NCBI GenBank assembly: GCA_965230295.1
Contig: OZ246001.1
Span: 3,827,502 to 3,891,501 of the forward strand
Reading direction: 5' to 3'
Source of the DNA: Marinicella sp.
Lineage (GTDB): Bacteria; Pseudomonadota; Gammaproteobacteria; Xanthomonadales; Marinicellaceae
Length of the DNA: 64,000 nucleotides
Program-made: the position numbers and the translations under genes
Notes under the pieces: generated by a model
What the model saw: the letters and a program-made list of their open reading frames with translations, nothing else
Told to the model about the DNA's origin: nothing
Databases searched by the model: none
Shown here: positions 1 through 50,462 of the stretch, in pieces
Numbering within the stretch: the stretch's first letter is position 1
Layout of the letters: each line of letters opens with the position of its first letter

Positions 1-753
1 TATGATTTGATTATTGGGGCCTCTGGTGCAGACTGGGATGCAGGCTCAGATTCTGGTAAAAGTTATGTGATCTTTGGTAGTGACGATGAGAATGGTTTAC
101 CAATACCTAATCCTTTAAATCTGTCCACACTCGATGCTAGAAATGGTTTCGTTATCAATGGCGAAAATGCGGGTGATTTCTCGGGCCATTCAGTCAGCTC
201 AGCTGGTGATGTCAATGGGGATGGGATTGATGATTTAATAATAGGAGCACCTTCTGCAGAATCAAGCACGGGTAAAAGTTATGTGGTGTTTGGTAGTAGG
301 GTTTCTTCACACTATCCTTTAAATCTTTCTGATCTCAATGGTGAAAATGCGAATGATCTTTCGGGATTTTCAGTTAGTTCTGCCGGTGATTTAAATAAAG
401 ATGGGTTTAATGATATTATTATTGGAGCTTCTTTTGCAGACCCAGATGCACACTCGGATGCTGGTAAAACTTATGTGATCTTTGGCAAAAGCGGCCTTTT
501 TTCCAGTCCATTGAACTTGACTGATCTCAATACCAACTTTCAAAATGGTGGTGTTGTCATCAATGGAGAGCACACATTTGATGAGTCGGGGTTCTCAGTC
601 AGTTCAGCAGGTGATATCAATGGCGATGGAGTTGATGATTTAATCATTGGGGCTCCTGGTGGAGGTGTGAATGCTCATTCAAGTGCTGGTAAAAGCTATG
701 TCGTCTTTGGAATGGAAAACTCAGATGTTATTTTTGAAACGGGGTTTGAGTGA
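1..753 (+). CDS. FG-GAP (integrin-alpha beta-propeller) repeat protein, 5'-partial at window edge
   Basis: Frame is open from base 1; repeats SVSSAGDVNGDGIDDLIIGAP...GKSYVVFG; ends DVIFETGFE. Confidence 0.9.
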   Translation, partial: YDLIIGASGADWDAGSDSGKSYVIFGSDDENGLPIPNPLNLSTLDARNGFVINGENAGDFSGHSVSSAGDVNGDGIDDLIIGAPSAESSTGKSYVVFGSRVSSHYPLNLSDLNGENANDLSGFSVSSAGDLNKDGFNDIIIGASFADPDAHSDAGKTYVIFGKSGLFSSPLNLTDLNTNFQNGGVVINGEHTFDESGFSVSSAGDINGDGVDDLIIGAPGGGVNAHSSAGKSYVVFGMENSDVIFETGFE

Positions 754-1077
754 GTTTGGACATATGAGCGTAGCGTTGATTAAATGAATTTTAACTGTGA
801 TAGATGTTGTGGATAGCTTGTCGGGAAAATCGATATTTCAAAAGCTTAATTGTTTAATGGTCTTTTTTAAATTACAAAACACATGGTTTAAGCTATTGAT
901 TGTAAGGAAAATTATTCTTATTCTTTTATTCTTTTAATGTTTTATTTTGATAGCCGAATAGGGTCGGCACAGTGTTTTGGTTAAAACAATAAAAGAAATG
1001 ATAATCCAAAGTGTGGCACTGATGTTTTTTGTGGTCGATCTGTAATTTGTTCCCCAAAATATAAACTGGAGATAATA

Positions 1078-2799: not shown

Positions 2800-2827
2800 A
2801 TGAATTGATATTTTCAAAATTCATAAA

Positions 2828-3168: not shown

Positions 3169-4371
3169 ATGAAAATGAAATTATTAGTCACATTATTAAC
3201 CATATTTATGTTTTTTAACATAGATGTTTGGGCTTTTGATTGTTCGAACCCAGATGTTTCTGTAGCTGAGTGTAATGCGTTAAATGATATGTACGGCCCT
3301 TTAGGCATAGCGAGTTCATCATTAATTGCTGTAGATATAATTAGTTGGGGAGAAGAAACTGACAATACTGTTTGTGACATATCAGTAATTGAATGCGACT
3401 CATCTATCCCTAAACGTGCTGTTCATTTACTTTTATCTCGCAAAGACTTGATAGGCACTATCCCCGACCTGAGTGCTTTGGCCAGTTTGCAACGCCTTGA
3501 CCTGAGTAATAATAATCTCAGTGGTCACATCCCTGACCTGAGTGCCTTGACCAATTTGAAATTCCTTTACCTGAATCAAAATAATCTTAGTGGCCACATC
3601 CCTGAGCTAGATGCCTTGACTAATTTGCAACAACTTTACCTACATATTAACGATCTCAGAGGTCCCATCCCTGACTTGAGCGTCTTAACTAATTTGAAAC
3701 ACCTTCTCCTATATCGTAACAATCTGAGTGGCCCCATTCCTGACTTGAGCGCCTTGACCAGTTTATATAGCCTTATTCTGGAGGATAACAATCTCAATGG
3801 CACCATTCCAGACTTGAGTGCCTTGACTAATTTGCAAAACCTTTACCTAAGTCGTAACGACCTCAATGGTCCCATCCCTAACTTGAGTACCTTGACCAAT
3901 TTACAATACCTTTACCTGAGTGGTAATGATTTCAGTGGCCCCATTCATCGTTTAAGTACCTTAACCAGTTTGAAACACCTAACCTTAAACGATAACAATT
4001 TCAGTGGTACCATCCATAGCTTGCGCACTTTGATCAATTTGCAAGTTCTTTTCCTGAGTGATAACAATCTTAGTGGTCCCATCCCTGACTTGAGCGCCTT
4101 AACCAATTTGCAACTCTTTTATTTGGCTAACAACTATTTCTTTGGACACTTTCCCGATCTCAGGCAAACAGATTTGCCAGAAGGAAATACGTTGAATTTT
4201 CATTCAAACTGCATAGAGCCGAATGTTAATAACTTTGTTAATGACTGGACTAATGCCAGAACTAGTCCTGCTAATGGCTTTGATAATCAACACGCAGATA
4301 TAAATACATGCTTGGACGTGTATGCAGACTTCATCATTACAGATACGGTTTTCATCGATACATTTGAGTAA
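3169..4371 (+). CDS. Secreted leucine-rich repeat protein (about 10 x 23-aa LRR, Cys-containing N-cap)
   Basis: Signal peptide; repeats LSALTNLxxLxLxxNNLSGPIPD; ends TVFIDTFE. Confidence 0.9.
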   Translation: MKMKLLVTLLTIFMFFNIDVWAFDCSNPDVSVAECNALNDMYGPLGIASSSLIAVDIISWGEETDNTVCDISVIECDSSIPKRAVHLLLSRKDLIGTIPDLSALASLQRLDLSNNNLSGHIPDLSALTNLKFLYLNQNNLSGHIPELDALTNLQQLYLHINDLRGPIPDLSVLTNLKHLLLYRNNLSGPIPDLSALTSLYSLILEDNNLNGTIPDLSALTNLQNLYLSRNDLNGPIPNLSTLTNLQYLYLSGNDFSGPIHRLSTLTSLKHLTLNDNNFSGTIHSLRTLINLQVLFLSDNNLSGPIPDLSALTNLQLFYLANNYFFGHFPDLRQTDLPEGNTLNFHSNCIEPNVNNFVNDWTNARTSPANGFDNQHADINTCLDVYADFIITDTVFIDTFE

Positions 4372-4476: not shown

Positions 4477-6237
4477 ATGAAACCAATAATAACTTTACTA
4501 TTTATTTTTTCTTTCTCATCTTCTTTTGCTGGTGGTGATATTGATCCATTTGTCATTACCATCACTACCACACCCCGCAACCAAGCAGACACAAACACTT
4601 TATTCAAATACGATTTACCAACTACTGAATATGAATACTCATATGATGTTGATTGGGACTACAATGGAGTCTTTGAAGCAGATGAAGTAGATGTAAATGG
4701 AATTTTAGAACATGATTACGGTAATCCTGGAGAATATACCATTGCTATTAAAGGGATATTTCCTAAATTTGGTTCATCACGCCCTGATCATATAGATCAA
4801 TTAGTAAGCATAGATCAATGGGGAGATATTGTTTGGAAAAGTTTTGAAAGCTCTTTTCGTGGTCAATATGATATCCGACCCGCTAGTTATATTGTAAATG
4901 CAACAGACATTCCTGACTTGTCAATGGTTAACTCTCTATCAGAAATGTTTTTTATTTCAAGCCAAGCTAATCCAGATGTGACTGGGTGGGATACATCCAA
5001 TGTTACTGACATGAGCTTTATGTTTTCTGTTACTGACGCAGCCAACCCAAATGTGAGTGGATGGGATACATCCAACGTTACTGACATGAGCTTTATGTTT
5101 TCTTTTGCTGACGCAGCCAACCCAAATGTAAGTGGGTGGGATACCTCCAATGTTACTGACATGAGCGGTATGTTTTTTGATTCTGCCATAGCCAACCCAG
5201 ATGTGAGCTTATGGGATACATCCAACGTTACTGACATGAGCTTTATGTTTTCTTTTGCTGACGCAGCTAACCCAGATGTGAGTGGGTGGGATACATCCAA
5301 TGTTACTAAAATGGGCGATATGTTTGCAATAGCAAGATTAGCTAACCCAGATGTGAGTGGATGGGATACATCCAATGTTACTGACATGACCCGTATGTTT
5401 TATGGTGCTGATGCAGCAAACCCAGATGTGAGTTTATGGGATACATCCAATGTTACTGACATGACCCGCATGTTTTTTGGTGCTATCTTAGCCACCCCAG
5501 ATGTGAGTTTATGGGATACATCCAATGTTGCTGATATGAATGAATTGTTCGCTTATGCAGGATCTGCTAATCCTGATTTAAGAAACTGGGTTATTGAAAA
5601 TGTTAATAGCATGAATGACATGTTTAACTCTAACAAAATGAAACGCAGTAATTATGAAGCCGCACTGATTTCTTTTGCGACGCAATTTACGAATAATAAT
5701 GTTAATTTTGCTGCTGGTTCTTCTCTGTATTGCTCATCAGCTGCTGAAAATGCAAAAACCTTTCTTACAGGCCCTACCAAGAATTGGACGATAGTCGATG
5801 GATCTGATGGTTTACCAAGTTGCGACATAAATGATGTTTCTGTTTCTATAGAAAGTAATCGTAGCCTACTTGCCCCAGGAGGTATGGTTACTTACCACAT
5901 CAGTATTAAAAATGATGGGGATAGGGATATTGATGATTTGAATGTGATCACCAATACAATGTTATTAACCAACTTGAATTGGGGATGTGAGGCCGTCAGC
6001 GCCACATGTCAAGATTCAGCTGGTAATGGTCCAATTTTGCACAGTAGTACAATAAATTCAGGTGGTGAAATCACTTATATTATCAATGCTACTAATGCAG
6101 GTATGAATGGTGAATATGCTATGATTTCTATTACAGCACAAAGCATCGATACCCCAGATGATTTTCTAAGAGATAATACTGCAACTTTGAATAGCAGAAC
6201 ATCAGATGATATTATTTTTTATAATTCACTCGATTAA
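4477..6237 (+). CDS. BspA-like/DUF285 surface repeat protein with C-terminal DUF11-like domain
   Basis: Signal peptide; eight 25-aa NPDVSxWDTSNVTDMxxMF repeats; YHISIKNDG...DNTA DUF11-like segment; ends DIIFYNSLD. Confidence 0.88.
   Translation: MKPIITLLFIFSFSSSFAGGDIDPFVITITTTPRNQADTNTLFKYDLPTTEYEYSYDVDWDYNGVFEADEVDVNGILEHDYGNPGEYTIAIKGIFPKFGSSRPDHIDQLVSIDQWGDIVWKSFESSFRGQYDIRPASYIVNATDIPDLSMVNSLSEMFFISSQANPDVTGWDTSNVTDMSFMFSVTDAANPNVSGWDTSNVTDMSFMFSFADAANPNVSGWDTSNVTDMSGMFFDSAIANPDVSLWDTSNVTDMSFMFSFADAANPDVSGWDTSNVTKMGDMFAIARLANPDVSGWDTSNVTDMTRMFYGADAANPDVSLWDTSNVTDMTRMFFGAILATPDVSLWDTSNVADMNELFAYAGSANPDLRNWVIENVNSMNDMFNSNKMKRSNYEAALISFATQFTNNNVNFAAGSSLYCSSAAENAKTFLTGPTKNWTIVDGSDGLPSCDINDVSVSIESNRSLLAPGGMVTYHISIKNDGDRDIDDLNVITNTMLLTNLNWGCEAVSATCQDSAGNGPILHSSTINSGGEITYIINATNAGMNGEYAMISITAQSIDTPDDFLRDNTATLNSRTSDDIIFYNSLD
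4966..5565 (+). repeat. Intragenic 75-bp tandem repeats (8 copies)
   Basis: Near-identical GCxAACCCAGATGTGAGT..TGGGATACATCCAATGTTACTGACATG units. Confidence 0.9.
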
Positions 6238-6590: not shown

Positions 6591-6606
6591 GTTTGATTTC
6601 ATTGCC

Positions 6607-6696
6607 CAATAGGTTAGATTACAATAGGTTAGATTACAATAGGTTAGATTACAATAGGTTAGATTACAATAGGTTAGATTACAATAGGTTAGATTA
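6607..6696 (+). repeat. Perfect 15-bp tandem repeat x6 (CAATAGGTTAGATTA)
   Basis: Six exact copies ending 1 nt before the ATG at 6698. Confidence 0.97.
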
Positions 6697-6697
6697 T

Positions 6698-7552
6698 ATG
6701 AAAATAAAATTATTAATCATATTTATGTTTTTTTTAAGCATGGATGTTTGGGCATTTGATTGCTCTAGCCCAGATGTATCTGTAGCTGAGTGTAATGCGT
6801 TAAATGATATGTATGGCCCTTTAGGCATAGCGGGCTCATCATTGCCTGCAGCAGACATAAACAGCTGGGGGGAAACTACCGACAATACCGTTTGTGACAT
6901 ATCACGAATTACATGCGATTCATCCACACCAAGACGTGTTACTCGCTTACATCTAGTCGGCGCGGACTTGAGAGGCACTATCCCTGACTTGAGTGCATTT
7001 ACTAATTTGCAAGATCTTTGGTTAGCTAATAACCAGCTCATTGGTCACATCCCTGACTTGAGTGCCTTGGCCAACTTACAATCTCTTGATTTACAGCGTA
7101 ATCAACTCAGTGGTCCCATCCCTGACTTGAGCGCCTTAACCAATTTACAACGCCTTTTCTTGCATGTTAATCAGCTCACAGGCCCTATCACTGAGTTGAG
7201 CGCCGTGACCAGTTTGCAACGCATTTACCTGCAATTTAACAATCTCAGTGGCCCTATCCCTGACTTGAACGCCTTGGACGATTTGCAACAACTTTCTTTG
7301 GATAACAATTATTTTTTCGGAGAATTTCCCGACCTCAGAGAAACAGGACTACAAGAAGGACGTACGTTGGGTTTTCATACAAACTGCATAGAACCGAATG
7401 TAAATAATTTAATTAATGACTGGGTAAATGCCAGAACCAGTCCTAATAACCATTTTAATAATCAACGTGCAGATATAAATACATGCTTGGATGAATTCAT
7501 CATTACTGATATGATTTTCATTGATACATTTGAGTTCGATGCGTTTGAATAA
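6698..7552 (+). CDS. Secreted LRR protein, paralog of 3169-4371 (about 5 LRRs)
   Basis: MKIKLLIIFMFFLSMDVWAFDCSSPDVSVAECNAL is nearly identical to the paralog N-terminus, so the start is placed at 6698 rather than TTG 6593; ends MIFIDTFEFDAFE. Confidence 0.88.
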   Translation: MKIKLLIIFMFFLSMDVWAFDCSSPDVSVAECNALNDMYGPLGIAGSSLPAADINSWGETTDNTVCDISRITCDSSTPRRVTRLHLVGADLRGTIPDLSAFTNLQDLWLANNQLIGHIPDLSALANLQSLDLQRNQLSGPIPDLSALTNLQRLFLHVNQLTGPITELSAVTSLQRIYLQFNNLSGPIPDLNALDDLQQLSLDNNYFFGEFPDLRETGLQEGRTLGFHTNCIEPNVNNLINDWVNARTSPNNHFNNQRADINTCLDEFIITDMIFIDTFEFDAFE

Positions 7553-8110: not shown

Positions 8111-8507
8111 TTTGTTTACTTCTGTTATTAGAGATAAGAAAGAACCGAAAGCGTCTCTTAGCTAATTAGCCTTAGTAGCCCACATGGTGCTAACAGCATA
8201 TTAACAAAAAATGATTGCAATAAAGCGACTTTTATTCATATCAAAGAATTTTATACGTGGTTCAAGTAATATTAACTCAAACAAATGATCTAATATTCAA
8301 ATTCAATGCATCGATACTACTTGATAAACCTACGTGCAACAAGATTGAAGACCTTTGCATCAAATCATATAACTATTTTCCTTCCAGCCTAATAGACTTT
8401 CACGTACCAATACATCATCGCTGATGTCTTTAAAACACAGGAGTAGTTCAATGATCTCAAAAAATCAAAACGGAGCCGCAATAGGCTTTTATTTTGCTGC
8501 CTTTACC

Positions 8508-8939
8508 TTCAATGGAGACAATGGCTTTCGGCTGGACGGTGGAGTTGGTGTGGATTCCATGTTTGGAAGTGCACTCAGCGAAGCAAAAGATGTGAATCTA
8601 GATGGTATAGATGACATCATAATTGGCTCATCGATTGGTTTTGTGGGCTCAGTTCTAGCTGCGGGTAAAAGTTATGTTGTATTCGGTAACGATGAGGGAG
8701 TGAGCCATCCTTTAAATATTTCTGAATTAAATGGGAGCAACGGCTTTTCCATTTTGGGAGCTGATGTCAATGGATATCTGGGAACCAGCGTCAGCGGAAT
8801 TGGTGATTTCAATGATGATGGAATTGGAGATGTGATGATGAGTGCACCACGAGCGGATGTTGGTGGAGAAAACGAAACAGGTAAAAGCTTTATCATATTC
8901 GGAAATGAACAGGCCATCTTTGTCAATGGTTTTGACTGA
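8508..8939 (+). pseudogene. 5'-truncated FG-GAP protein (last two repeats plus tail)
   Basis: FG-GAP similarity starts abruptly at NGDNGFRLDG; no signal peptide; ends QAIFVNGFD; paralogous to the C-terminus of 20325-21761. Confidence 0.8.
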
Positions 8940-10305: not shown

Positions 10306-11886
10306 TTAATCAAATTCAAACCCGTTAGTAAAAATGGCTGATTCTTTGCCAAAGATCACATAGCTTCTACCAGGTGATGTATCAGCCGGACCTGCATCAG
10401 GAGCCCCAATGATCAAATCATCAAACCCATCATCATTGACATCACCAGCTGAACTGACTGAAAAACCAGAGGAGTCAGCTGTATTTTCACCATTGATAAC
10501 AAAGCCATTTTTACCATTTATTGAGGACAGTTCAAACGGATTGGGTAAACCACTAGCACTGCCAAAAATCACATAGCTTTTTCCTGCATCTGTATTACCA
10601 TTTGGATCGGCAAGATTGGCTCCAATAATCAAATCAAAAATTCCATCACCATTGACATCACCCGCTGAACTGACAGAGTGACCTGACTCATCACCTGTAT
10701 TTTCACCATTGATAACAAAGCCATTTTTACCATTTATTGAGGACAGTTCAAACGGATTGGGTAAACCACTGGCACTGCCAAAAATCACATAGCTTTTACC
10801 TGCATTTGTCTTACCATTTGGATCGGCAAGTTTAGCTCCAATTATCAAATCATCAATCCCATCGTCATTGACATCACCTGCTGAACTGACAGAAAAGCCC
10901 AAATAATCATCAATATTTTCACCATTGATAACTAGACCAATCGGGCTAGTTAGACTAGACAGAGTTAACGGATTAGGAAAACCACTATTCCTATTCCTGC
11001 CAAAGATCAAATAGCTTTTACCATCGCTTTCTGCTCCAGGTGCCCCTACAATTAAATCATCAACCCCATCATCATTAATATCACCAGCTGAGCTAACTGA
11101 ACGGCCTGACCAATCATTTTCATTTTCGCCTTCGATAACAAACCCATTTTCATCTTTGAGATTTGATAGGTTTAGCGATCCCGAAAAACCACTTTTACTG
11201 CCAAAAACCACATAGCTTTTACCTGCAGATGATTCGTTATTCGGGCTTGCAGAAAAGGCCCCAATAATTAAATCAACAACCCCATCACCGTTTACGTCAC
11301 CAGCAGAACTGACTGAATAACCCGAATAATCATCTTCATTTTCGCCATTAATCATAAAACCATCCACGCCATAGGGAAATGAAAGATCAATCGGATTAGG
11401 TAAATCATCCTCACTGCCATACACCACATAACTTTTACCAGCTTTTGACTGTGCGCCATAAGCTCCAATGATCAAGTCATCAATCTCATCGCCATTGACA
11501 TCACCTGCTGAACTAACTGAAATACCTGAAAAATAGAACCTATTAACACCATTGGCAACAAAACCATTCTCACCATCAAGAGCTGAAAGGCTCAACAGCT
11601 TGGGAAAATCACCCTCACTGCCATACACTACATAGCTTTTACCAGCATTAAATCTACCACCTAAACCAGCGCTAAAAGCCCCAATGATCAAATCATCAAT
11701 TCCATCACCATTGATATCACCAGCTGAACTGACTGAAAAACCAGAGGAATCACCTTCATTTTCGCCGTTCATAACAAAGCCGTTGCTGCCATCAATATCT
11801 TCTAAGTTAAGACTTGAATAATACTCAGCAAATCCATCAGTAGAAATAAGTATCAAAGTAAAAGTTATATAAATAAATGTTTTCAT
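10306..11886 (-). CDS. Secreted FG-GAP repeat protein (7 repeats)
   Basis: Signal peptide; SVSSAGDVNxDGxDDLIIGA repeats; ends AIFTNGFEFD. Confidence 0.92.
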   Translation of the reverse strand: MKTFIYITFTLILISTDGFAEYYSSLNLEDIDGSNGFVMNGENEGDSSGFSVSSAGDINGDGIDDLIIGAFSAGLGGRFNAGKSYVVYGSEGDFPKLLSLSALDGENGFVANGVNRFYFSGISVSSAGDVNGDEIDDLIIGAYGAQSKAGKSYVVYGSEDDLPNPIDLSFPYGVDGFMINGENEDDYSGYSVSSAGDVNGDGVVDLIIGAFSASPNNESSAGKSYVVFGSKSGFSGSLNLSNLKDENGFVIEGENENDWSGRSVSSAGDINDDGVDDLIVGAPGAESDGKSYLIFGRNRNSGFPNPLTLSSLTSPIGLVINGENIDDYLGFSVSSAGDVNDDGIDDLIIGAKLADPNGKTNAGKSYVIFGSASGLPNPFELSSINGKNGFVINGENTGDESGHSVSSAGDVNGDGIFDLIIGANLADPNGNTDAGKSYVIFGSASGLPNPFELSSINGKNGFVINGENTADSSGFSVSSAGDVNDDGFDDLIIGAPDAGPADTSPGRSYVIFGKESAIFTNGFEFD

Positions 11887-12179: not shown

Positions 12180-12737
12180 TGGCTCATCACCTGGTTTACT
12201 TGTCGCGGGTAACACTGTGATTTATGAAATCATGATTAGCAACGATGGGCCGATGGATGCCACCGATGTGGACGTCAGTGATACAACCTGAATTTAGTCG
12301 CTGTGGCTGGTGACACCTCCTGTGCACCAGCCAGTTTTATATATACCATCGCTTCACTCCCCAGTGTCACCAGTGAAAAATTAACTGTCTTAACCACCAT
12401 TAATGCGGTTGGGGTCTTTGATAATGTATATTCTGTGGGCGCAGATCAACCAGACGGCAATCAGTCAAATAATATCGATGATACAGGTAATGGTGGTGAT
12501 GAAATTATCATGAACAATGGATCTTTTGCATTCATTACATTACTTGACGATGAGTAAAGCTATCAGATAACAATCGATTTGCCACCTATTGATCCGATCC
12601 AACCCTGTACAATCACAAATGACATTGAATTAATTGCTGGTGATGATGTAATTGATGTGGAAGTGGCTTGTGAACGAGGAGATGATTTGATTTTTAGAAA
12701 TGATTTTGAAATGATGCCGCCAATTATTATGAAATAA
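12180..12737 (+). pseudogene. Fragmented DUF11-domain secreted protein
   Basis: YEIMISNDGPMDATDVDVSDT and DGNQSNN fragments in different frames; final fragment QPCTITND...VACERGDDLIFRNDFE. Confidence 0.7.
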
Positions 12738-13081: not shown

Positions 13082-14332
13082 TCAGTTTGAAAGTTTGTTG
13101 TTTTCAATAATTTGGTCATATATATTTTCAATATCCAACTTATATTTATCGGTAAATTTGCCTGCATTTTTAGCTGAATTCACGCGATATAAAATAACTG
13201 ACAATGGGGCATAGTTACCAAGAGTTTTCATTGCCTCAATTGGTCTCATCGACTTATTTTCTACCTTTGCACTCCCAAATGAGTTTCTTAACCATTGAGC
13301 AGTAGCCATTTGGCACTTTTCAATATCATCAATGAAATATTTTTTGTATGTGGTATTTTCATAAATAGATTGGTTCTGAATAATTATTTTGCTGATATCC
13401 ATTAAAGTTGATCCAACAATGGTCGAAATCTGCCTAGTTGTTATTTTCTTTAGTTTATAGGTATTTGAAACCAAAGGAATGATGACATCAGAATCAGTTT
13501 CGAAATATTCAGCCATGTAGCTTAGTTGTGAATTAATTACTTTCAACTGCTCAGAGTTCAAACTGATATAACGTTCATTTGAACCCATGATTTTAAGGAA
13601 TAATTCATTTTCTAAAGAAATTACATCTGAATTTTTCATATTGGAAAGTTCTGTTATTTTGAGCCCGAACTCTAACAAAATGTAAATGATCAAAAAAGCG
13701 CGATTGGCTTCAAAACAATCATAAGAAAAGCGATCGTAATCTGTTTCTTGTGCTAATACTGTTAATATGAACCTAGTTAGCTGGGGGTTTAAAGTTTTGC
13801 TGTTATACCGACTTTCCAATTCGCTGAGAGAATCATCTTTCATGAGATAGGCTGGTACAGGGTTCCTATATAAATAACAATTTGATTTCAAAAATCTGTA
13901 AAGAGTGTGTATTTTCCTAAGTGAGGACCTTACTGAAACCTTGGATCGAATTGATTTACGAAAGGGACGCCATTCAGGATTAATGCTATCATCGATTAAG
14001 ATTTTTTTCTGATGAGTCCCCACCCATCTCTTTAAAGGTTTTGGATTGTAAAGAAATTCAGAGTAGGCCATGCAATTATCTGTCGTGAAAGCAGTAAAAG
14101 AAATGTTATTCTGCTCTAACCACAATAAAAATGTTTCAATTTCTTTGTAATAGGCACTTATGGTGTTTTTCACAGATTCCTTCATTGAAAGAAACTTCAT
14201 AATTGCATCAATATCAGTATTCACAGACAAATCGTTTTCTAAGTCTTTGCACAGGTTTTGGCCTGGAGCAAATACATCTGGCACTCTGTGCAGAATAACT
14301 TTTGAGGATTTATATAACAGTATCGGCTCCAT
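13082..14332 (-). CDS. Tyrosine-recombinase-fold protein with degenerate catalytic motifs (candidate TnsF-like target selector)
   Basis: Core-binding domain (T..AYYKEIETFLLW, WRPF, YLYRNP); box I FGLKITEL (R to K); no GKG/K; box II QWLRNS (H to Q); LGN (H to N); Tyr retained; starts 11 nt after the tniQ stop. Confidence 0.85.
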   Translation of the reverse strand: MEPILLYKSSKVILHRVPDVFAPGQNLCKDLENDLSVNTDIDAIMKFLSMKESVKNTISAYYKEIETFLLWLEQNNISFTAFTTDNCMAYSEFLYNPKPLKRWVGTHQKKILIDDSINPEWRPFRKSIRSKVSVRSSLRKIHTLYRFLKSNCYLYRNPVPAYLMKDDSLSELESRYNSKTLNPQLTRFILTVLAQETDYDRFSYDCFEANRAFLIIYILLEFGLKITELSNMKNSDVISLENELFLKIMGSNERYISLNSEQLKVINSQLSYMAEYFETDSDVIIPLVSNTYKLKKITTRQISTIVGSTLMDISKIIIQNQSIYENTTYKKYFIDDIEKCQMATAQWLRNSFGSAKVENKSMRPIEAMKTLGNYAPLSVILYRVNSAKNAGKFTDKYKLDIENIYDQIIENNKLSN

Positions 14333-14343
14333 AATTTACACTC

Positions 14344-15705
14344 TTAGAAATATGAGTTGATTGCTTCGCCACCGAGATTAAAAATACTCAATAATTTTCT
14401 GGATTGTTTATTATCAAATTCAAAAATATCTTCAGGATAATAAACTGATAGTTTTAATTCATCTAATATGAATGTATATGGGCACCTGCATTCAAAGTTA
14501 TTTTGCAAGCCACCAACTATTTTACCATCGTCACTCTTTTTTGTTTGTTCCAAGAAAGATGACACGTACTTGAAAATACTGAGATAAGTGGTCCATAAAT
14601 CTATCTTATAAACCAACATTGATAGCTCCATAGGCATGCGATAGAACTTTAATTCTGATTTATCACAAATTACTTCATGTCTAATGAAAAACTGATGGAC
14701 TTGAGGTAGCTTAAGGCCACGACTAGTCATGTTGTTATATAAATCAGTAAAAACTGAAGCAGACCTATCTTCTGGCACATAATGACCATCATGAAGTAGC
14801 TTAATTAACTCTAGTGTGTTTGTCTTAATGTGGGCACTTGTTAAATCAGCGGTGTTGTTTTTAAGTAAGCATCTAATTTTTGATAATGATTTTTGGGTTA
14901 CTCTAACTTTTTGCTTATCTAGAGCACTCCAATAGTCATTTTCATTCACAAATCTGGACATATTGTCATCAGTTGTAACAGTATATTTTTGCTTGTTAAT
15001 TCGATAAAAAGGAACTTTTAACTCTTGAGCAAGTTGTTTCTCTGATTCAAATAAATCACCTTCCTTTGCCATTACAGATAAATTGAAAATGTGGTTATTA
15101 TTAATAACAGGCTTTGGAGTGAAAAACTGTGTATCTAAATACAGTTCAAATTTTGGCAGATACTTTTTCGAACGTCTTATGATTGAGTTTAAGAAATGGA
15201 CTTGGTCAAATTTTTCGTCACATGGTATTTTATTTGATTTGACTATTTGATTATCTAATTTTGTACCACAGGAACTACAGCCTCTTGATATTAAGTCATG
15301 AGACATAGGCCAGTGAATTCCACATACATGACAGTTTGTTATTAAATCAGCATCATGAATAGGGCACTTTAGTAACCAAGGTTCATCAAATAGTTTTGTA
15401 TGAAACCCAATCTCAGCGCATTCTGGGCAATGCTTTAGTGGTCTATATCCTTTTTGTAATAAAAGATTCAACCTTTGATCTGATGGAATGTTTGATCTTT
15501 CATACATACTAGCAAGCAATGCAGGCTTGTATGCAATCAGTTTAGAATTAATAAATAGCTCACTTCCTTTGATGCCGACGTTCTTGAATTCTTTAATGAC
15601 TTTGCAGATAGAATTTAACCTTTGATTTGCAATAAGAAACCTGCGATAAGCGGAGTAGGGGCTTTCTCCTGGTCTTTTCAGCATTTGGCCAGTATTAATC
15701 ATCAA
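14344..15705 (-). CDS. tniQ: TniQ/TnsD-family protein
   Basis: Zinc-finger motifs CPEC...CPIH...CHVC...CSSCG; ATGA overlap with tnsC. Confidence 0.85.
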   Translation of the reverse strand: MMINTGQMLKRPGESPYSAYRRFLIANQRLNSICKVIKEFKNVGIKGSELFINSKLIAYKPALLASMYERSNIPSDQRLNLLLQKGYRPLKHCPECAEIGFHTKLFDEPWLLKCPIHDADLITNCHVCGIHWPMSHDLISRGCSSCGTKLDNQIVKSNKIPCDEKFDQVHFLNSIIRRSKKYLPKFELYLDTQFFTPKPVINNNHIFNLSVMAKEGDLFESEKQLAQELKVPFYRINKQKYTVTTDDNMSRFVNENDYWSALDKQKVRVTQKSLSKIRCLLKNNTADLTSAHIKTNTLELIKLLHDGHYVPEDRSASVFTDLYNNMTSRGLKLPQVHQFFIRHEVICDKSELKFYRMPMELSMLVYKIDLWTTYLSIFKYVSSFLEQTKKSDDGKIVGGLQNNFECRCPYTFILDELKLSVYYPEDIFEFDNKQSRKLLSIFNLGGEAINSYF

Positions 15706-16664
15706 ACTAACTCAACTTCATCAGGAATCAAGCCAGAAGCATTTATACTGGCTTCTACCATCTGGCTCATTAGAATAGGGTCATTGACTCCGTTGTTGGG
15801 AATAAAATCAAACAACAATATACGAATCATGGATAGAAAGTATTGAATGGGCCATGACTCTATTCCAGCTTCTTTACGAAAGCATTCCTCATAAACTTGC
15901 CAGATGATTTCTGTAATATCAATTAATCTCCAGTCATCAGACACTTCCTGATTCCATAGGTATTCTTTGGTATACGAGTTTTTCTTTGTAAACAAATATT
16001 TTTGATCAATCTCACTTAAACATGCCTTCAGTTCTATTTCCTTTCTGATTCCATAGAAATTATGAAATTTCAATAAAAACCGTCCCCTTATCAATTCATA
16101 CTGTGGGTTTTCTTTCATCTTGTCTAATAACTGTACCGAAGCAGAATGATTCCCAACAAAGAAAATCGAAAGATGAATCCCAAAATTCATCAATCCATCA
16201 TAGAGTTCAGCAAATACTTCAAACTGTTTAGGCCTAAGTCTTTGCATTTCATCAATAAAAAGAATCAGATTATGAGGAGTTTTAGAATTAGTCGCAGACT
16301 CACCAAGAAAATAAATCAAATCATTAGCCATAATGTCTGCGCGAGTATTCTCAGTTATTGATAGTTCAGCTGAATAGCACAGCTGCCTAAGTATTCCTGT
16401 AATGGTTCCTACATCTCTTGGTGCTATAGAAGTGAAATGGCAATTAATTTTTTGATTTCTTCTTGTGTATATTCGATCTTTGACATGCTGTATTGCCGAG
16501 GTTTTTCCAATTCGGTTAGAACCAAGAATGACCCCTCCAGAGAAGCCATTCAAATGCCATTTATGGATGACCTCAGACAGTTCATCAATCATCGGAGTTG
16601 TTATAAAAAACTCCTTTAGATTCATCATCTGATCATAAATATTTGAGGAGCCATCATTACTCAT
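15702..16664 (-). CDS. tnsC: TnsC-like AAA+ ATPase
   Basis: Walker A GSNRIGKT; Walker B LFIDE; AAGGAG RBS and ATGA overlap with the tnsB stop support a start at 16664. Confidence 0.88.
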   Translation of the reverse strand: MSNDGSSNIYDQMMNLKEFFITTPMIDELSEVIHKWHLNGFSGGVILGSNRIGKTSAIQHVKDRIYTRRNQKINCHFTSIAPRDVGTITGILRQLCYSAELSITENTRADIMANDLIYFLGESATNSKTPHNLILFIDEMQRLRPKQFEVFAELYDGLMNFGIHLSIFFVGNHSASVQLLDKMKENPQYELIRGRFLLKFHNFYGIRKEIELKACLSEIDQKYLFTKKNSYTKEYLWNQEVSDDWRLIDITEIIWQVYEECFRKEAGIESWPIQYFLSMIRILLFDFIPNNGVNDPILMSQMVEASINASGLIPDEVELV

Positions 16665-20073: not shown

Positions 20074-20324
20074 TTGAATAAAAAATATCGTTTAACATTG
20101 ATGGTCATATCACTAATTACGATAATAACAATAGGACGTTTATCCACAGGATCATTTGACTTTTGGAGCACTCAATTCTGGTTTGTTTCTGGGGCTTTAT
20201 TACTTATATTACTAGCATTAATTGATCAACCACATTTTTCAAAAGACGCGAACATATTTGTTAACGGTTCGACTGCTCTTATTTCATTATTCGTCGTCCA
20301 ATCCAATGATAGAGATAATTTTTG
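20074..20324 (+). pseudogene. 3'-truncated membrane protein
   Basis: Hydrophobic N-terminus; the sequence switches to FG-GAP coding sequence at about 20325, so the rest of ORF 20074-20463 is off-frame readthrough. Confidence 0.65.
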
Positions 20325-22185: not shown

Positions 22186-22216
22186 AAGCCCATCCATCAA
22201 AGTGATGGGCTTTTTT
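22186..22216 (+). terminator. Intrinsic-terminator-like hairpin directly upstream of an RBS
   Basis: AAGCCCATC-loop-GATGGGCTT followed by a T run; AGGAGGAG follows 6 nt later. Confidence 0.6.
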
Positions 22217-22234
22217 ACAAACAGGAGGAGACAA

Positions 22235-32953: not shown

Positions 32954-34177
32954 CTATGGACAGCTGGCAGACCAAGCGCTCGTGTCTCCTGACTCAAATC
33001 CATCAGAGAATACAGCATCTACATTGACATCTCTGACATACAGATCTGTACCTGTGCTCCCTATTCTCGGTCCACCAACCACCAATCTTGTGTTGTTGGT
33101 GTAGTTACCTTTAAGCTGAACCTGGCATGTAGCAACTGGACCGCCTGTGCCATCTAATGGAAATAAGAAATCATTCATAACTGGTGTGGAAGTATCATAA
33201 GGCTTATAAGACCAGTAATCACCCCATATGGTCTTGTTCAAAACAGGCAGACCGTTGAGATCAAGAAAAGAACTGGTTGTCCCACCTTGAAAAGAAAATT
33301 GCGAACCATTGTTAACAATCGTCCCTAAATCTCTTTGAACGGCTGCAGCAGGGTTATTTTCAGGCACTTCAACTGATCTGGCAGTACCTTCAGAGTTATA
33401 TGTGAATGTAATGCCCGTGCCATTGAAGGACCCTGCTCCTTCTTTAACAAAAGTGAAACCACTGGGTGGTGATAAATTCTCAATCGGTGTATGGGTAAAA
33501 GATGCTGAAGAACCAACTGTACTGGTGTGTGTTACCCTGACCTGACCATTGCTCTGTTGATTCAAGCCCATCATATAGCGACCTGAAAAACTGGAGGCCA
33601 AAGGCTCTCTGATACCGCCATCAAACGGACCGGCGGATGTATAACGACCATAAAAAGTGTAATTAGACCCTCCATTGGTTGACCTGAAAATTTCTGTTTC
33701 ACCGTCGGTTAAATCATGGGTAGCCACAAAAACCCCATCTTGGGTTAAAGCACAATCTGCATTGTCAAAATCATTGGTGGTGGTACCTGGCATGGTTGAT
33801 GTACTCCAGGTAGATCCATTGTATCTGGCCACTTCTAAGTTAAAGTTTTTGATGTATGGCACAATGACATTGGATCCATCCGTGCAAATATCTCCCAGCG
33901 CAAACAAAACAGATGAGCTATCCAGGGCTGACCCTGTAATACCAGTGCCATTATAAGGAGGTGGAATTCGAACGGTTTGCAGCCGGTTATTCGATCCATC
34001 GTTCCACAAAACCACAGCCAATAAATCTGGATTGGGTCCAGACGAATATGCACCTAATTTGATTTCCAATGGTTCTTGAAAAAATACTGGGATCGTTTGC
34101 CAGTCCCCCTTAGGATCACCTTTGGCCAGAAATGGTGTAAAAACCCATACCACAAACATCAATTTTAATAATCTCAT
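32954..34177 (-). CDS. Secreted hypothetical protein with tail VFSDGFESGDTSAWS
   Basis: Signal peptide; beta-rich sequence; extended GFE motif. Confidence 0.75.
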   Translation of the reverse strand: MRLLKLMFVVWVFTPFLAKGDPKGDWQTIPVFFQEPLEIKLGAYSSGPNPDLLAVVLWNDGSNNRLQTVRIPPPYNGTGITGSALDSSSVLFALGDICTDGSNVIVPYIKNFNLEVARYNGSTWSTSTMPGTTTNDFDNADCALTQDGVFVATHDLTDGETEIFRSTNGGSNYTFYGRYTSAGPFDGGIREPLASSFSGRYMMGLNQQSNGQVRVTHTSTVGSSASFTHTPIENLSPPSGFTFVKEGAGSFNGTGITFTYNSEGTARSVEVPENNPAAAVQRDLGTIVNNGSQFSFQGGTTSSFLDLNGLPVLNKTIWGDYWSYKPYDTSTPVMNDFLFPLDGTGGPVATCQVQLKGNYTNNTRLVVGGPRIGSTGTDLYVRDVNVDAVFSDGFESGDTSAWSASCP

Positions 34178-44313: not shown

Positions 44314-44322
44314 TTTAAATCA

Positions 44323-47354: not shown

Positions 47355-47501
47355 TTAAACTTCTGATTGTGTGATTAATGTAAGCGGTGTATTTTGACAG
47401 CAAAGTGATTAAAAATCGAGTCTGATTTCAAGCTATTCAATGAAACTCGGGCGAACCTGGTTTAAACTAATATGACAATAATTTTAAAAAGAGGAAATTA
47501 C

Positions 47502-50462
47502 ATGAAATCAAGAATAATAGTTTGCTTGTGTAGTGTCTTGATGTTGATGACAGCAGTCGCTGATGATGGTCAAGAACAACCCGCTGTTCAAGTAAACCCA
47601 CTTACCCCACAAATTAAAACGGTCCACAAGTTTGACATCTCATTGCCATTGAGAATGATGACACCAAAACCCATTGTTGCTCAAGATAAACGTGGTGGAT
47701 CAATGGTTGATTTTGGTCCAATCAGTAATGATGGTGATGCACCCTTCGTTCCTGACCAGGCATTGCAAAGTGAATTAGGACAACAACCAGGCCCGGTCTA
47801 TCAAAACGACTTTTTTGCTTTGGATAATATTTCTGGAGTTTCACCACCGGATCCAGCTGGAGATGTTGGCCCTAACCATTATGTGGCCATGACCAATTTA
47901 TCGTTTGTTGTGCTGGATAAGACCGGAGTCGTTCAATTTGGTCCAGCTGCTAATAACACAGTATGGACTGGCTTTGGTGGTGCCTGTGAAACTGAAAATT
48001 CAGGAGACCCCATCGTGTTGTATGATCAAATCTCGGACCGTTGGTTGTTGTCTCAATTTACCTCGGCTGGTCCGCAATACTTTAACTGTGTGGCAGTATC
48101 ACAAACCGCCGACCCCACTGGTGCATATTACAGGTGGGCCATCCTTAACAACAATGGCCCAGGCAATGGTAACCAAGACTTGTTCCCTGACTACCCTAAA
48201 TACGGTGTATGGAGTGATGCTTTTTATATCTCTACTCGGGACTTTGATCGCAACGGTTCCGGTGCCTATGTCGGCGTGGGCGTTTACGCTTTGAATCGTG
48301 ATGATTTAGTCAATGGTGTCCCTAATCCCACCACAATTTACTTCTTCGTTGACCGCTCCAGTGACCCTTGGCAAGTGGGTGATGGCTTGTTACCAGCAGA
48401 TATAGATGGGCCTACTCTACCCCCTCTTGGATCACCACAGTTTTTTGTTGGTACCATGGATGATGGTGGTCCGTATGGTGCCGCCAGTGATGCCATTTCG
48501 TTCTGGGAGTTTGATGCCGATTTTATCACGCCTGCCAACTCGTCATTTACCAGGACTGCAGTCATTCCAATGACGGCATATGATACCCAATTCCCATGTG
48601 GTGGCAGCAGGGCATGTATCGATCAACTGGGCACCAGCAATAAAATCGATATCCAGTCTTATCGCCAACGCCCATTACACCGATTGGCCTATAGAAATTT
48701 TGGCACCCATGAATCGTTGGTTACCAATCAATCAGTGGAAGCTGCTGCCGGTATTGGCGGCATTCGTTGGTGGGAAATTCGAGATCCAGATAATTCACCC
48801 AACATTTTCCAGGAAGGCACTTATGGACCTGGTGCCACCGATGGAATCAGTCGCTGGATGGGTTCAATAGCCCAAGATGCAGAAGGAAATATGGGGTTAG
48901 CCTACAGTGCATCCAGCTCAACCATCAATCCTGCCATCAGATTTACCGGACGCTTGGCTTCTGACAACTTGGGTGAAATGGATCGGACAGAAGGCACCAT
49001 CATAAATGGTACGGGTAGCCAAACCAACAGCCAAAGATGGGGTGACTACACTTCAACCAATATTGACCCAGTTGACGACTGCACATTCTGGCATGTCAAT
49101 GAATACTATGATAATAATGGCGGTGATTGGCAAATCCGTGTGGGCTCATTTAAGTTTGATGAGTGTGGTGTTCCAGGATTTCTCTTAACACCAGTGGATC
49201 CATCAAAAGCCATTTGTGTCGGTGACGATACTTCATATGATATCAATGTCGGTTCAGTTGGCCAATACGATGGTGTTGTCACACTCAGCACGACGGGCGA
49301 GCCAGCTTCATCAACGGCTACATTCACCACCAACCCAGTACCTTCCTTACCTGGCAGTACAACCTTAAATATCACCAACACAGCCGCTGTTTCAAGCGGC
49401 GATTACATCATCAATGTATTGGGCACTTCCCCTACTGTTGATAATCAAAACACTGATTTGATGCTGAAAGTGTTTGCCACAACGCCAACGGCACCGGGAT
49501 TAGTTGCTCCAGCTGATGGCGCCATTAATCAGGACATCCAACCCAGCTTTAACTGGAGTGGCAGTGACACATTGGAATATACAGTGGAAGTGGCCACAGA
49601 CCCAGGATTTTCGAACATTGTCTTTTCAGACACCACAACAGGAACCACCATAGTACCCACCATTGAATTAGAAAATGCTACGGACTATTATTGGCGTGTA
49701 AGAGCTAACAACACTTGTGGTGATAGCACAAATTCTGATGTCTATACCTTTTCAACAATAATTGCACCTGGCGATTGTGCAGTCGATCAAGTAGCTGTTG
49801 AGCAATATGCCTACGGTTTCGAACAAGGCATTCTAGACTGGACTACTGAGAGTCTAGTGGCAGGTCCAGATGTTTGGGCCCCCAGCAGTGTCAATGTGGG
49901 ATCTGGAAACACTTCCATGCTGGCAGTAGACATTTCCACAGTCACTGATCAAGTGCTGATCTCACCGCCCATTCAGTTACCAACGGATGAATTTCCAATT
50001 TCATTGTCATTCTGGAATTTTCAAAATATCGAAGCCAACGATGGGACTGGTAGCCAAGCCTGTTGGGATGGTGGCATCCTCGAAATCAGTACCGATGGCG
50101 GTTCATCATTCAATCAAGTGCTCAGCGATTTGATTCTGACAGACCCATACAACGGTGGTGTGGTTTCTGGTCCCAACCCATTGTCTTCACTCAATGCATG
50201 GTGTGCAGATGACATCGTACCAAGTACAGGCAATCAAGAGGATACGGTCACTGTCGATTTGAATGACTTTGCAGGTGAGACCGTACAATTCAGGTTCCGT
50301 TTAGGCACAGATGCCTTTGTAGGAGATGAAGGTTGGTATATTGATGATGTGCGTGTTCAAAGCTGTGTTCCAGATTTACCACCAGTCTGTGATCAAGCAC
50401 CACCATCCAATGATCCAGATGTAATATGGTTCAATGGGTTTCAGTGTGTAGCCGATAACTGA
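47502..50462 (+). CDS. Large secreted multidomain protein (beta-rich N-domain, FN3-like and lectin-like C-domains)
   Basis: GAGG RBS; signal peptide; PPDPAGDVGPNHYV, DYPKYGVW and RWGDY motifs; ends DVIWFNGFQCVADN. Confidence 0.8.
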   Translation: MKSRIIVCLCSVLMLMTAVADDGQEQPAVQVNPLTPQIKTVHKFDISLPLRMMTPKPIVAQDKRGGSMVDFGPISNDGDAPFVPDQALQSELGQQPGPVYQNDFFALDNISGVSPPDPAGDVGPNHYVAMTNLSFVVLDKTGVVQFGPAANNTVWTGFGGACETENSGDPIVLYDQISDRWLLSQFTSAGPQYFNCVAVSQTADPTGAYYRWAILNNNGPGNGNQDLFPDYPKYGVWSDAFYISTRDFDRNGSGAYVGVGVYALNRDDLVNGVPNPTTIYFFVDRSSDPWQVGDGLLPADIDGPTLPPLGSPQFFVGTMDDGGPYGAASDAISFWEFDADFITPANSSFTRTAVIPMTAYDTQFPCGGSRACIDQLGTSNKIDIQSYRQRPLHRLAYRNFGTHESLVTNQSVEAAAGIGGIRWWEIRDPDNSPNIFQEGTYGPGATDGISRWMGSIAQDAEGNMGLAYSASSSTINPAIRFTGRLASDNLGEMDRTEGTIINGTGSQTNSQRWGDYTSTNIDPVDDCTFWHVNEYYDNNGGDWQIRVGSFKFDECGVPGFLLTPVDPSKAICVGDDTSYDINVGSVGQYDGVVTLSTTGEPASSTATFTTNPVPSLPGSTTLNITNTAAVSSGDYIINVLGTSPTVDNQNTDLMLKVFATTPTAPGLVAPADGAINQDIQPSFNWSGSDTLEYTVEVATDPGFSNIVFSDTTTGTTIVPTIELENATDYYWRVRANNTCGDSTNSDVYTFSTIIAPGDCAVDQVAVEQYAYGFEQGILDWTTESLVAGPDVWAPSSVNVGSGNTSMLAVDISTVTDQVLISPPIQLPTDEFPISLSFWNFQNIEANDGTGSQACWDGGILEISTDGGSSFNQVLSDLILTDPYNGGVVSGPNPLSSLNAWCADDIVPSTGNQEDTVTVDLNDFAGETVQFRFRLGTDAFVGDEGWYIDDVRVQSCVPDLPPVCDQAPPSNDPDVIWFNGFQCVADN

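Follow-up and report, generated by a model that had tools for sequence, protein, structure and literature searches.

A nine-residue C-terminal GFE tail on Sec-exported proteins of Marinicella, a candidate surface-sorting tag

The tripartite sorting signals and their relatives, IPTL-CTERM (TIGR04174) with exosortase H (XrtH, TIGR04177), PEP-CTERM, GlyGly-CTERM, MYXO-CTERM and LPXTG, resemble the C-terminal GFE tail described here in standing after "choice-of-anchor" domains and in having many carriers per genome. The likeness to IPTL-CTERM/XrtH extends further, as GFE tails occur only in XrtH-positive genomes and an IPTL-like tail replaces the GFE tail in one orthologue. However, the GFE tail has neither a hydrophobic helix nor a basic end and is also used N-terminally and in tandem, and genuine XrtH-type signals form a separate small set in the Marinicella genome (about seven tails with PVPV..WGLL, a helix and a basic end, matching the midcut-by-XrtH model). 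A screen for a C-terminal helix with a basic end picked a different, small set of proteins. Lacking helix, basic end and any curated-model match, the tail was rejected as a tripartite signal of the LPXTG, PEP-CTERM, GlyGly-CTERM or IPTL-CTERM type.

The T9SS CTD of Bacteroidota (type A, PF18962/TIGR04183) is likewise a helix-free C-terminal element on many unrelated Sec-exported proteins, but this CTD folds into an Ig-like domain 70-100 residues long that the T9SS recognises and PorU cleaves, whereas the GFE tail has nine residues, is unfolded in the structure model and belongs to Gammaproteobacteria, in which, to our knowledge, a T9SS is not expected. Identity with this CTD was rejected on length, on the absence of a PF18962/TIGR04183 match and on a tail pLDDT of 41-55. 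An outer-membrane protein beta-signal, in which an aromatic residue ends a beta-barrel, was rejected because the tail closes with E or D and sits on soluble proteins of several domains. Dockerin-cohesin, SLH and S-layer-linked anchoring modules fold into domains of 40-70 residues and have known partners; like the GFE tail they are short modules common to many unrelated secreted enzymes and adhesins and occur in tandem copies, and the genomes of GFE carriers all have the S-layer protein NpdA, but the resemblance is one of inferred function only. Pfam and NCBIfam gave no match on the tail residues even at E values up to 10, with matches stopping at the preceding domain, and no NCBIfam family, including the "ultrashort" sorting motifs such as the YLP-box, matched the tail peptides at that threshold. 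The same motif, in the same register and position, is found in a 19-residue long form carried by orthologues, which is itself absent from family catalogues.

The window, the whole 64-kb stretch of Marinicella DNA that was analysed, had been predicted to encode thirteen proteins or fragments of different folds sharing this tail. All thirteen tails were found in the sequence at the predicted positions and are listed here by the window coordinates of the nine-residue motif; residues after a hyphen follow the motif.

724-750, + strand: DVIFETGFE, stop; FG-GAP protein 1-753, cut by the window edge (full ORF at genome C1:3827154-3828254)
2767-2793, + strand: DLIFTNSFE-S, stop; CotH and lamin-tail protein 1078-2799, signal peptide present
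4342-4368, + strand: DTVFIDTFE, stop, degenerate; LRR protein 3169-4371, signal peptide present
6208-6234, + strand: DIIFYNSLD, stop, degenerate; DUF285/PARCEL-repeat protein 4477-6237, signal peptide present
7508-7534 (to 7549 with FDAFE), + strand: DMIFIDTFE, then a partial second copy FDAFE, stop; LRR protein 6593-7552
8910-8936, + strand: QAIFVNGFD, stop; FG-GAP fragment 8424-8939
10315-10341, - strand: SAIFTNGFE-FD, stop; FG-GAP propeller protein 10306-11886, signal peptide present
12678-12710, + strand: GDDLIFRNDFE-MMPPIIMK, stop; C-terminal gene remnant, stop-to-stop 12558-12737
21732-21758, + strand: QALFANGFD, stop; FG-GAP protein 20322-21761, N-terminally truncated ORF
23813-23839, + strand: KPLFKGGFE, stop; FG-GAP protein 22202-23842, signal peptide present
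27610-27636 (to 27642 with EV), + strand: DLIFINGFG-EV, stop; trypsin-like, fn3 and MAM-like protease 25114-27645
32993-33019 (whole 32957-33019), - strand: DAVFSDGFE-SGDTSAWSASCP, stop, 19-residue long form DAVFSDGFESGDTSAWSASCP, stop; protein 32954-34177
50418-50444 (to 50459 with CVADN), + strand: DVIWFNGFQ-CVADN, stop, degenerate; after the MAM-like domain of protein 47472-50462

Four members are fragments or 5'-truncated (1-753 at the window edge, 8424-8939, 12558-12737 and 20322-21761). The predicted diversity of folds was confirmed by Pfam, which assigned FG-GAP propellers, CotH with lamin-tail, LRR, DUF285/PARCEL and trypsin with fn3 and MAM-like domains to the window carriers, and the housekeeping genes of the window were, as claimed, without the tail. 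Protein 32954-34177, which had no Pfam or NCBIfam match, carries the sole long-form tail of this genome. The 5' end of ORF 6593-7552 lies within a 15-bp tandem repeat.

Searching the whole 4.008-Mb Marinicella genome for [ILVM]F.[NDGTSE][GSTDN]F[EDQG] within 15 residues of the ORF end identified 114 ORFs, about 3% of the proteome, with the motif at or no more than 12 residues from the C-terminus, compared with about 1.3 expected by chance. Internal matches numbered 20 in 1.49 million residues, so that the C-terminal density was 87-fold the internal one, and a reversed DNA pattern used as a control gave 0-1 matches per genome. The genome-wide consensus was D-[LV]-I-F-x-[DN]-[GD]-F-[ED], or more broadly D-x-[ILV]-F-x-[DN]-[GD]-F-[ED]. 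In 66 of the 114 carriers the motif is the exact C-terminal end, while the other 48 continue for 1-12 mostly polar residues; the tail end is acidic, with E or D as the last motif residue in 103. The carriers fell into 66 BLAST clusters, 55 of them singletons. A signal-peptide heuristic was passed by 95 of the 114, most of the others show a signal peptide by eye, and only 1-3 are lipoproteins. Across these 114 proteins the original prediction of a tail that is position-specific, restricted to Sec-exported proteins of many folds and devoid of a membrane helix was thus upheld. An identical motif was also present directly after the signal peptide, at the mature N-terminus, in two proteins, and several proteins had tandem copies. 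Twenty of the 114 tail genes lie within a 75-kb stretch (C1:3786422-3861678) that spans the first 34 kb of the window, and the AT-rich left 28 kb of the window falls inside this cluster.

The clustering of many tail genes (20 of 114 in 75 kb) could be read as a DNA-level artefact, namely a repeated element, terminator or recombination site overlapping gene ends. However, identity across the tail codons was 43% at third positions but 71% at positions 1 and 2, each of the three stop codons was used after the tails, and high-GC relatives encoded the same peptide with different codons. A DNA-level origin, to which we assign next to no probability, was therefore rejected because synonymous sites vary freely and all three stop codons occur. 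Selection acts on the tail peptide, not on the DNA.

Protein 25114-27645 allowed the tail to be compared with other C-termini at one position. Four kinds of C-terminus occur there among its orthologues: the short tail, the sequence IFADGFESGDTSAWSxxVP, a T9SS CTD (PF18962, in the Bacteroidota orthologues) and, in one orthologue, an IPTL-like membrane-spanning tail made up of VPTLS, a helix and RRR. In orthologues from Acidobacteriota MAGs, the 19-residue long form stands in place of the short tail; its consensus in these and other MAGs is [ILV]F-x-DGFESGD-x-S-x-WS-xx-P-COOH. An alignment of 69 homologues placed short and long tails in one register after the MAM-like domain, with F840 invariant and F836 at least 90% conserved. 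The short tail matches the long form over its first 7-9 residues, substitutes for it in orthologues and is a truncated form of this 19-residue tail found in other phyla. The choice-of-anchor Q model stops one residue before the tail, and the MAM-like domain preceding it aligns with the one located just before the sorting signal in M36 peptidases that depend on myxosortase or rhombosortase. The tail accordingly takes the place, directly after "choice-of-anchor" domains, that T9SS, IPTL-like or long-form tails hold in orthologues, as had been proposed. In the AlphaFold2 model the body has a pLDDT of 87 and residues 831-843 drop from 55 to 41; the tail is thus predicted to be an exposed, unpacked linear motif that is no part of the preceding fold.

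Tails were limited to part of the order Lysobacterales/Xanthomonadales (Marinicella, Wenzhouxiangellaceae, Dokdonella and others), where the long form is rare (0-1 per genome). Xanthomonadaceae-type genomes had no tails, and 397 other gammaproteobacterial genomes gave matches only at background level. All 52 genomes with at least three tails have XrtH, XrtH_assoc heading an Xps-type T2SS operon, and NpdA, and all 20 genomes without XrtH, XrtH_assoc and NpdA, which are Xanthomonadaceae-type, had 0-1 matches, yet eight genomes with XrtH, NpdA and T2SS also had 0-1 tails. XrtH, the NpdA S-layer and T2SS, all already-described modules, were the only genomic correlates of the tails and behave as necessary but insufficient for them, a relation confounded by phylogeny, since the associations may reflect perhaps one or two ancestral losses (in a Xanthomonadaceae-type family, f2, and part of another, f12) and many genes would give the same pattern.

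The Marinicella genome encodes two T2SSs, system A at C1:857482-867919, preceded by XrtH_assoc, and system B, whose GspC has a PDZ domain. System-B GspC was found in 39 of 39 tail-rich genomes (at least 10 matches); the second system follows tail abundance without being essential for tails. An unannotated 473-aa gene after gspD encodes an NpdA homologue, matching NpdA of Dokdonella and Wenzhouxiangella (supplement of PMC10765051). NpdA with its T2SS is also described from Betaproteobacteria and further Gammaproteobacteria (PMC10765051), although the 397 other gammaproteobacterial genomes searched here had tails only at background level. NpdA copy number correlated with tail count (Spearman 0.45-0.52), the coefficient being 0.29 after genome-size correction. 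Four of 11 NpdA paralogues lie no more than 500 bp from a tail gene, compared with 10% expected, and the sequence of one paralogue terminates in DLIYLDGFEN. In other genomes, by contrast, tail genes were not adjoined by an NpdA paralogue at any of about 100 loci. A fold search with an NpdA-like model gave weak jelly-roll/lectin similarities and no significant match, so that no docking site can be named.

Alternatively, the tail might be a linear signal that selects cargo for type II secretion, read in the periplasm and needed for outer-membrane crossing, not for retention. Every carrier is a soluble, Sec-exported protein in need of a route across the outer membrane, T9SS CTDs, which are export signals, stand at the same place in orthologues, and system-B GspC with its PDZ domain accompanies the tails in all 39 tail-rich genomes; an X-aromatic-D/E C-terminus is a described class of PDZ ligand. 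Candidate readers would be this PDZ domain, an XpsN-like protein with a basic tail, or an XrtH-associated membrane protein encoded beside gspE. However, three genomes (G292, G031 and G304) have genuine tail proteins but neither a T2SSC match nor a system-B secretin orthologue, one genus (g8 of family f7) has both T2SSs with 0-1 tails, and no tails accompany the Xps-type T2SS of Xanthomonadaceae-type genomes. Binding to a PDZ domain through a free carboxylate fits poorly with the 48 of 114 tails that are not terminal and the two that are N-terminal, and a PDZ-binding C-terminal peptide was rejected because only 66 of 114 motifs are terminal and PDZ-GspC is missing from the three genomes named. 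No linear T2SS signal is known in any system, which counts against cargo selection by the tail and is why the choice and placement of type II-route proteins by Gram-negative bacteria is a long-standing open question. On the sequence comparisons, we regard a cargo signal as a serious possibility, though a rather unlikely one.

A third possibility is a processing signal, a minimal relation of IPTL-CTERM/PEP-CTERM that exosortase H, or else some other peptidase or transpeptidase of the envelope, would cleave or ligate. This would agree with the restriction of tails to XrtH-positive genomes (52/52 compared with 0/20 XrtH-negative), with the presence of XrtH substrates in the same genome and with the IPTL-like tail at the same position in one orthologue. 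It is nevertheless very improbable, as no helix or basic anchor would present the tail to a membrane-embedded exosortase, N-terminal and tandem use is unusual for a cleavage signal, tails are few or missing in the XrtH-positive lineages f7 g8 and f8, and in about 100 tail loci no dedicated peptidase or transpeptidase gene recurred beside the tail genes. The tail could also have no sorting role: it might be what remains of the first strand of a LamG/MAM-type jelly-roll, or it might cap C-termini generically, for instance against tail-specific proteases, having spread by domain shuffling. The motif looks like what we take to be the usual first strand of jelly-roll domains, and the long form F-x-DGFESGDxSxWS shares its pattern with the opening residues of the family's own MAM-like domain (consensus FADDxESGxxxW). 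Yet a remnant would decay, whereas nine positions are kept on 114 proteins in 66 clusters and across families with free synonymous change, and the tail follows unrelated folds and is restricted to exported proteins and particular lineages; we consider a tail without a sorting role distinctly improbable.

The reading we prefer, at somewhat less than even confidence, is that the GFE tail would be a surface-sorting tag read non-covalently in trans, an address or docking element instead of a sortase-like cleavage site. A cleaved, sortase-type signal is disfavoured by the lack of a membrane helix and of a basic end, by N-terminal use and by tandem copies. Carriers would cross the inner membrane by Sec and then fold, leaving the tail exposed for recognition, in which it would probably take the form of a short beta-hairpin or an extra strand; the identical motif at two mature N-termini and the tandem copies are the behaviour expected of a binding tag. 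Its most likely job would be to hold proteins leaving by the type II route on the cell surface, by docking to the NpdA S-layer or the outer-membrane surface, which every tail-bearing lineage possesses. In Wenzhouxiangella AB-CW3, the medium was without protease activity and the authors inferred cell-anchored proteases (PMC7691419). That combined T2SS and S-layer display uses the tail as a transferable linear address, read by the NpdA-linked T2SS module whose operon starts with XrtH_assoc and docking more than 100 enzymes and adhesins on the NpdA lattice by beta-strand addition, seems improbable on present comparisons; a tail acting as a free first jelly-roll strand would then make this a natural split-domain surface-display system.

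The nine-residue tag, borne by about 3% of a proteome, lends itself to deletion, mutation and transfer to a reporter. Should it direct export, it would make cargo selection directly accessible to study, and if it directs retention, it would represent a new mode of enzyme display on the S-layer or outer membrane and a very small surface-display tag. In Marinicella, Wenzhouxiangella, Dokdonella and related MAGs, the tag could mark proteins now annotated as "hypothetical", thousands in all, as secreted or surface-located, and the long form would extend this gain in annotation to Acidobacteriota. The long-form tail also occurs in phyla outside the NpdA/XrtH survey.

All thirteen GFE tails named by the original prediction (nine-residue C-terminal peptides of the form D-x-[ILV]-F-x-[DN]-[GD]-F-[ED]) were present in the sequence at the ends of the genes to which they had been assigned. 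Its description of the carriers also held: a clear Sec-type signal peptide was recognized in eight of the twelve ORFs, the others being fragments or cut or, for 6593-7552, beginning in a tandem repeat; the Pfam architectures were unrelated, and the motif was missing from the cytoplasmic and housekeeping genes, about 30 in number, of the window's right half. These architectures comprised FG-GAP propellers, CotH with a lamin-tail domain, LRR, DUF285/PARCEL repeats, and trypsin with fn3 and MAM-like domains, while protein 32954-34177 had no match in the domain search. The incomplete carriers were the following.

1-753: tail-carrying ORF, cut or fragment
8424-8939: tail-carrying ORF, cut or fragment
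20322-21761: tail-carrying ORF, cut or fragment
12558-12737: tail-carrying remnant, no ORF

We then scanned the complete 4.008-Mb chromosome containing the window (C1) for the pattern [ILVM]F.[NDGTSE][GSTDN]F[EDQG] within 15 residues of the C-terminus. The pattern was found in 114 of 5,719 ORFs of at least 90 residues, against about 1.3 terminal matches expected by chance, and only 20 internal matches occurred in 1.49 million residues, giving a terminal-to-internal density ratio of 87. The aligned logo of the 114 tails read D (92/114), [LV], I (98/114), F, x, [DN], [GD], F, [ED], with the motif forming the exact C-terminal end of 66 proteins and the other carriers extending 1-12 residues beyond it. 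Without their tails, the carriers fell into 66 BLAST clusters, 55 of them singletons. A signal-peptide heuristic was passed by 95 of the 114 carriers and most others visibly had a signal peptide, with only 1-3 being lipoprotein-like. A 75-kb stretch (C1:3786422-3861678), which spans the first 34 kb of the window including its AT-rich left 28 kb, held 20 of the 114 tail genes.

Codon identity across the 114 tails was 71% at positions 1 and 2 and only 43% at position 3; every synonymous codon and all three stop codons were in use, and high-GC relatives encoded the same peptide with other codons. This variation excluded a DNA-level artefact, whether repeat or terminator, as the origin of the tail, and selection acts on the tail peptide. 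Taken together, the analyses show that the GFE tail is an exposed terminal tag on exported proteins, conserved as a peptide and matching known sorting signals in its position. The observation of the tail is solid, and its function as a sorting tag is predicted.

The tail was absent from Pfam and NCBIfam 20.0, even when tail peptides were searched alone up to an E value of 10, and we found no description of it in the papers searched on the motif, on Marinicella/Wenzhouxiangella secretion or on XrtH (exosortase H)/IPTL-CTERM; it adds a candidate to the terminal protein-sorting tags. PGAP labelled tail proteins 'hypothetical protein', 'choice-of-anchor Q domain-containing protein' and similar, and the last position of the choice-of-anchor Q model is the residue just before DLIFADGFE. 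In addition, the MAM-like domain preceding the tails of 25114-27645 and 47472-50462 matched the domain upstream of the sorting signals of M36 peptidases that are myxosortase- and rhombosortase-dependent.

Comparison of 120 homologues of 25114-27645 revealed several kinds of ending at this position. Marinicella-type homologues ended in the short tail. About 40 more matched the strict pattern of a 19-residue C-terminal long form (IFADGFESGDTSAWSxxVP), further degenerate copies were visible, and the long-form group included MAGs labelled as Acidobacteriota or Methylomirabilota. The short tail thus corresponds to the opening 7-9 residues of the long one. Bacteroidota homologues carried a T9SS CTD (PF18962), and one protein had a VPTLS-helix-RRR ending. 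The long tail is the more widespread of the two, and both occupy the position of secretion or anchoring signals. The GFE tail accordingly groups with the uncatalogued long GFE tail. Within the order, the long form was rare (0-1 per genome), so that it was rejected as a substitute in tail-free XrtH-positive lineages, and the sole copy in this genome was on window protein 32954-34177. Two other conserved short tails, which may be additional uncatalogued tags, were seen at the same position in ten homologues (P0065, P0066, P0072, P0078, P0080, P0091, P0095, P0103, P0109 and P0111), one of the type LPxWPxxSIxDLxxCLP and the other a dockerin/EF-hand-like DLDLDSDGxxSxxDMxxQxxC.

The GFE tail is lineage-restricted. 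Exact DLIFADGFE-stop matches in one genome per species (185,579 species) gave 54 loci, a result that places the window in a Marinicella. Besides Marinicella itself, the loci fell in Dokdonella, Pseudofulvimonas, Wenzhouxiangellaceae, Rhodanobacteraceae and Lysobacterales MAGs, and the rest came from a single MAG labelled Alcanivoracaceae and a few unclassified Gammaproteobacteria MAGs. With a degenerate stop-anchored DNA pattern, 7-53 matches were obtained in every genome from this genus or its sister genus, and none in the reversed control. Among 80 chosen genomes of the order, a relaxed pattern had 10-85 matches in 39, 3-9 in 13 and 0-1 in 28, with controls giving 0-2; the lowest group included 10 of 10 genomes of family f2, which is Xanthomonadaceae-like going by its size, completeness and genus count, and 10 from seven genera of family f12.

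Gene neighbourhoods at the 54 exact loci, and at 20 loci from genomes with only 1-4 matches to the strict DNA pattern, contained no recurrent peptidase, sortase or transporter beside the tail genes. The sole recurrent neighbours were regulators, which look like a dedicated regulatory theme. In several families, genes for tail proteins repeatedly lay beside one of two such sets. One set combined an ECF sigma factor (PF07638) with a Ser/Thr kinase bearing TPR or FGE-sulfatase domains, and the other combined FHA proteins with FHA/sigma-54 activators.

L003, L011, L013, L042, L052, L059, L064, L070 and others: example loci with flanking regulatory sets

Two T2SSs were encoded in this genome. System A, located at C1:857482-867919, is Xps-type (GspM_XpsM equivalog) and has a lipoprotein as its secretin; an 'exosortase H-associated membrane protein' (XrtH_assoc; NF041730, 163 bits) is encoded ahead of it, between purL and gspE, an arrangement kept across the order. 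The extended layout of this operon (C1:855496-868615, outside the window; loci L085-L097) was likewise conserved across the order and ran from purL, NF041730, gspE to gspN and gspD (lipoprotein secretin) to a 144-aa lipoprotein, an NpdA homologue, two unknown exported proteins and an ABC-2 transporter. System B has a PDZ domain on its GspC.

XrtH (TIGR04177), XrtH_assoc and a secreted protein of about 470 residues after gspD each occurred in the identical 60 of 80 genomes, comprising all 52 tail-bearing genomes (at least three matches) but also eight with 0-1 tails, and all three were missing from 20 tail-free f2 and f12 genomes. Because the XrtH-negative set represents one or two clades, these associations are not independent events. 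The ~470-residue protein has a signal peptide, no known domain and a position after a 12-gene gsp cluster, as does the published S-layer protein NpdA, and it matched the Dokdonella and Wenzhouxiangella NpdA of the supplement (PMC10765051); we therefore assign it, by sequence, as NpdA. The operon layout and the shared distribution of XrtH, XrtH_assoc and NpdA point to a single module made up of the NpdA S-layer, its T2SS and the XrtH/IPTL-CTERM system. NpdA and its T2SS occur beyond the order (PMC10765051), although tails there were at background level (397 genomes from >200 other families of the same class).

NpdA-like paralogues numbered 11-12 in this genome, up to 11 in some relatives and one in others, an unusual expansion of an S-layer protein family.

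C1: 233751, 494636, 495996, 1418106, 2432775-2436986 (three in tandem), 2579249, 2682126, 3720947: NpdA-like paralogues

One paralogue ended in DLIYLDGFEN, and NpdA copy number correlated with tail count (rho 0.45-0.52; 0.29 after genome-size correction). Here, a tail gene lay no further than 500 bp from 4 of 11 paralogues (10% would be expected), yet no paralogue was adjacent at about 100 tail loci of other genomes, and adjacent partnership was rejected. A fold search with an NpdA-like model (pLDDT 91) had no significant PDB match.

Several readings of the tail were weighed, and we infer that it would be recognized non-covalently after Sec export. Our leading, still tentative, reading is a surface retention or docking signal at the S-layer or outer membrane, ranked first because the motif is used at either terminus and also in tandem, its carriers are adhesin-like, it is equivalent to anchoring signals and nested within the NpdA/XrtH clade, and Wenzhouxiangella is reported not to release protease activity into the medium (PMC7691419). 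Two exported proteins (C1:1551084-1558106 and C1:2454379-2454921) bore the full DLIF[AK]TGFE motif not at the C-terminus but immediately behind the signal peptide, and tandem tail copies were seen in this and related genomes; both fit binding better than cleavage. A processing signal for XrtH or another enzyme is very improbable: XrtH accompanied every tail-bearing genome, but the tail, as originally predicted, has no TM helix, and it also lacks the basic end and the model match that together with the helix define tripartite sorting signals. Replacement between IPTL-CTERM and GFE tails showed only a weak trend, with 10-18 IPTL and few GFE tails in some f8 and f7 genomes and few of either in genus g8 of f7. 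That the tail is a functionless jelly-roll remnant or cap is also unlikely.

A T2SS cargo signal, compatible with retention, is possible and ranks behind it. System B was present in all 39 tail-rich genomes (at least ten matches) and tracks tail abundance, but genomes G292, G031 and G304 had genuine tail proteins without GspC or the system-B secretin; it is therefore not required and was rejected as the reader. The extra system-A genes (144-aa lipoprotein, NpdA, two unknown genes and ABC-2 transporter) did not discriminate, being also conserved in tail-free f7 g8. In an AlphaFold2 model of 25114-27645 (69 homologues as input; mean pLDDT 87), tail residues 831-843 fell to 55 and then 41 and were unpacked on the MAM-like domain, and within them F840 was invariant and F836 at least 90% conserved; as modelled, this conserved yet unpacked peptide looks like a motif read in trans. 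Among known systems, the tail would work most like the T9SS CTD, which has a folded domain that the tail lacks, and like dockerin/SLH-type display modules.

About seven proteins of this genome carried a PVPV(N/P)xxWGLL-type motif followed by a hydrophobic helix and basic end, and are likely its true XrtH substrates; two matched the signal region of the 'midcut-by-XrtH' model and none scored with TIGR04174.

C1:3056-3868, 117801-118817, 820214-821107, 982792-983415, 2285626-2286402, 2778439-2783760, 3946541-3948502: PVPV(N/P)xxWGLL-type proteins

Window 1-28000, with a G+C content of 34-37% versus 44% genome-wide, housed 11 of 13 tail genes, of which several are fragmentary, surrounding a minus-strand gene block (13082-19221), and looks like a variable surface-protein island. 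The LRR gene 6593-7552 starts inside a tandem repeat of six perfect copies of the 15-bp unit CAATAGGTTAGATTA (6607-6696), which encodes NRLDY repeats at its 5' end and may represent a phase-variable or recently disrupted start.
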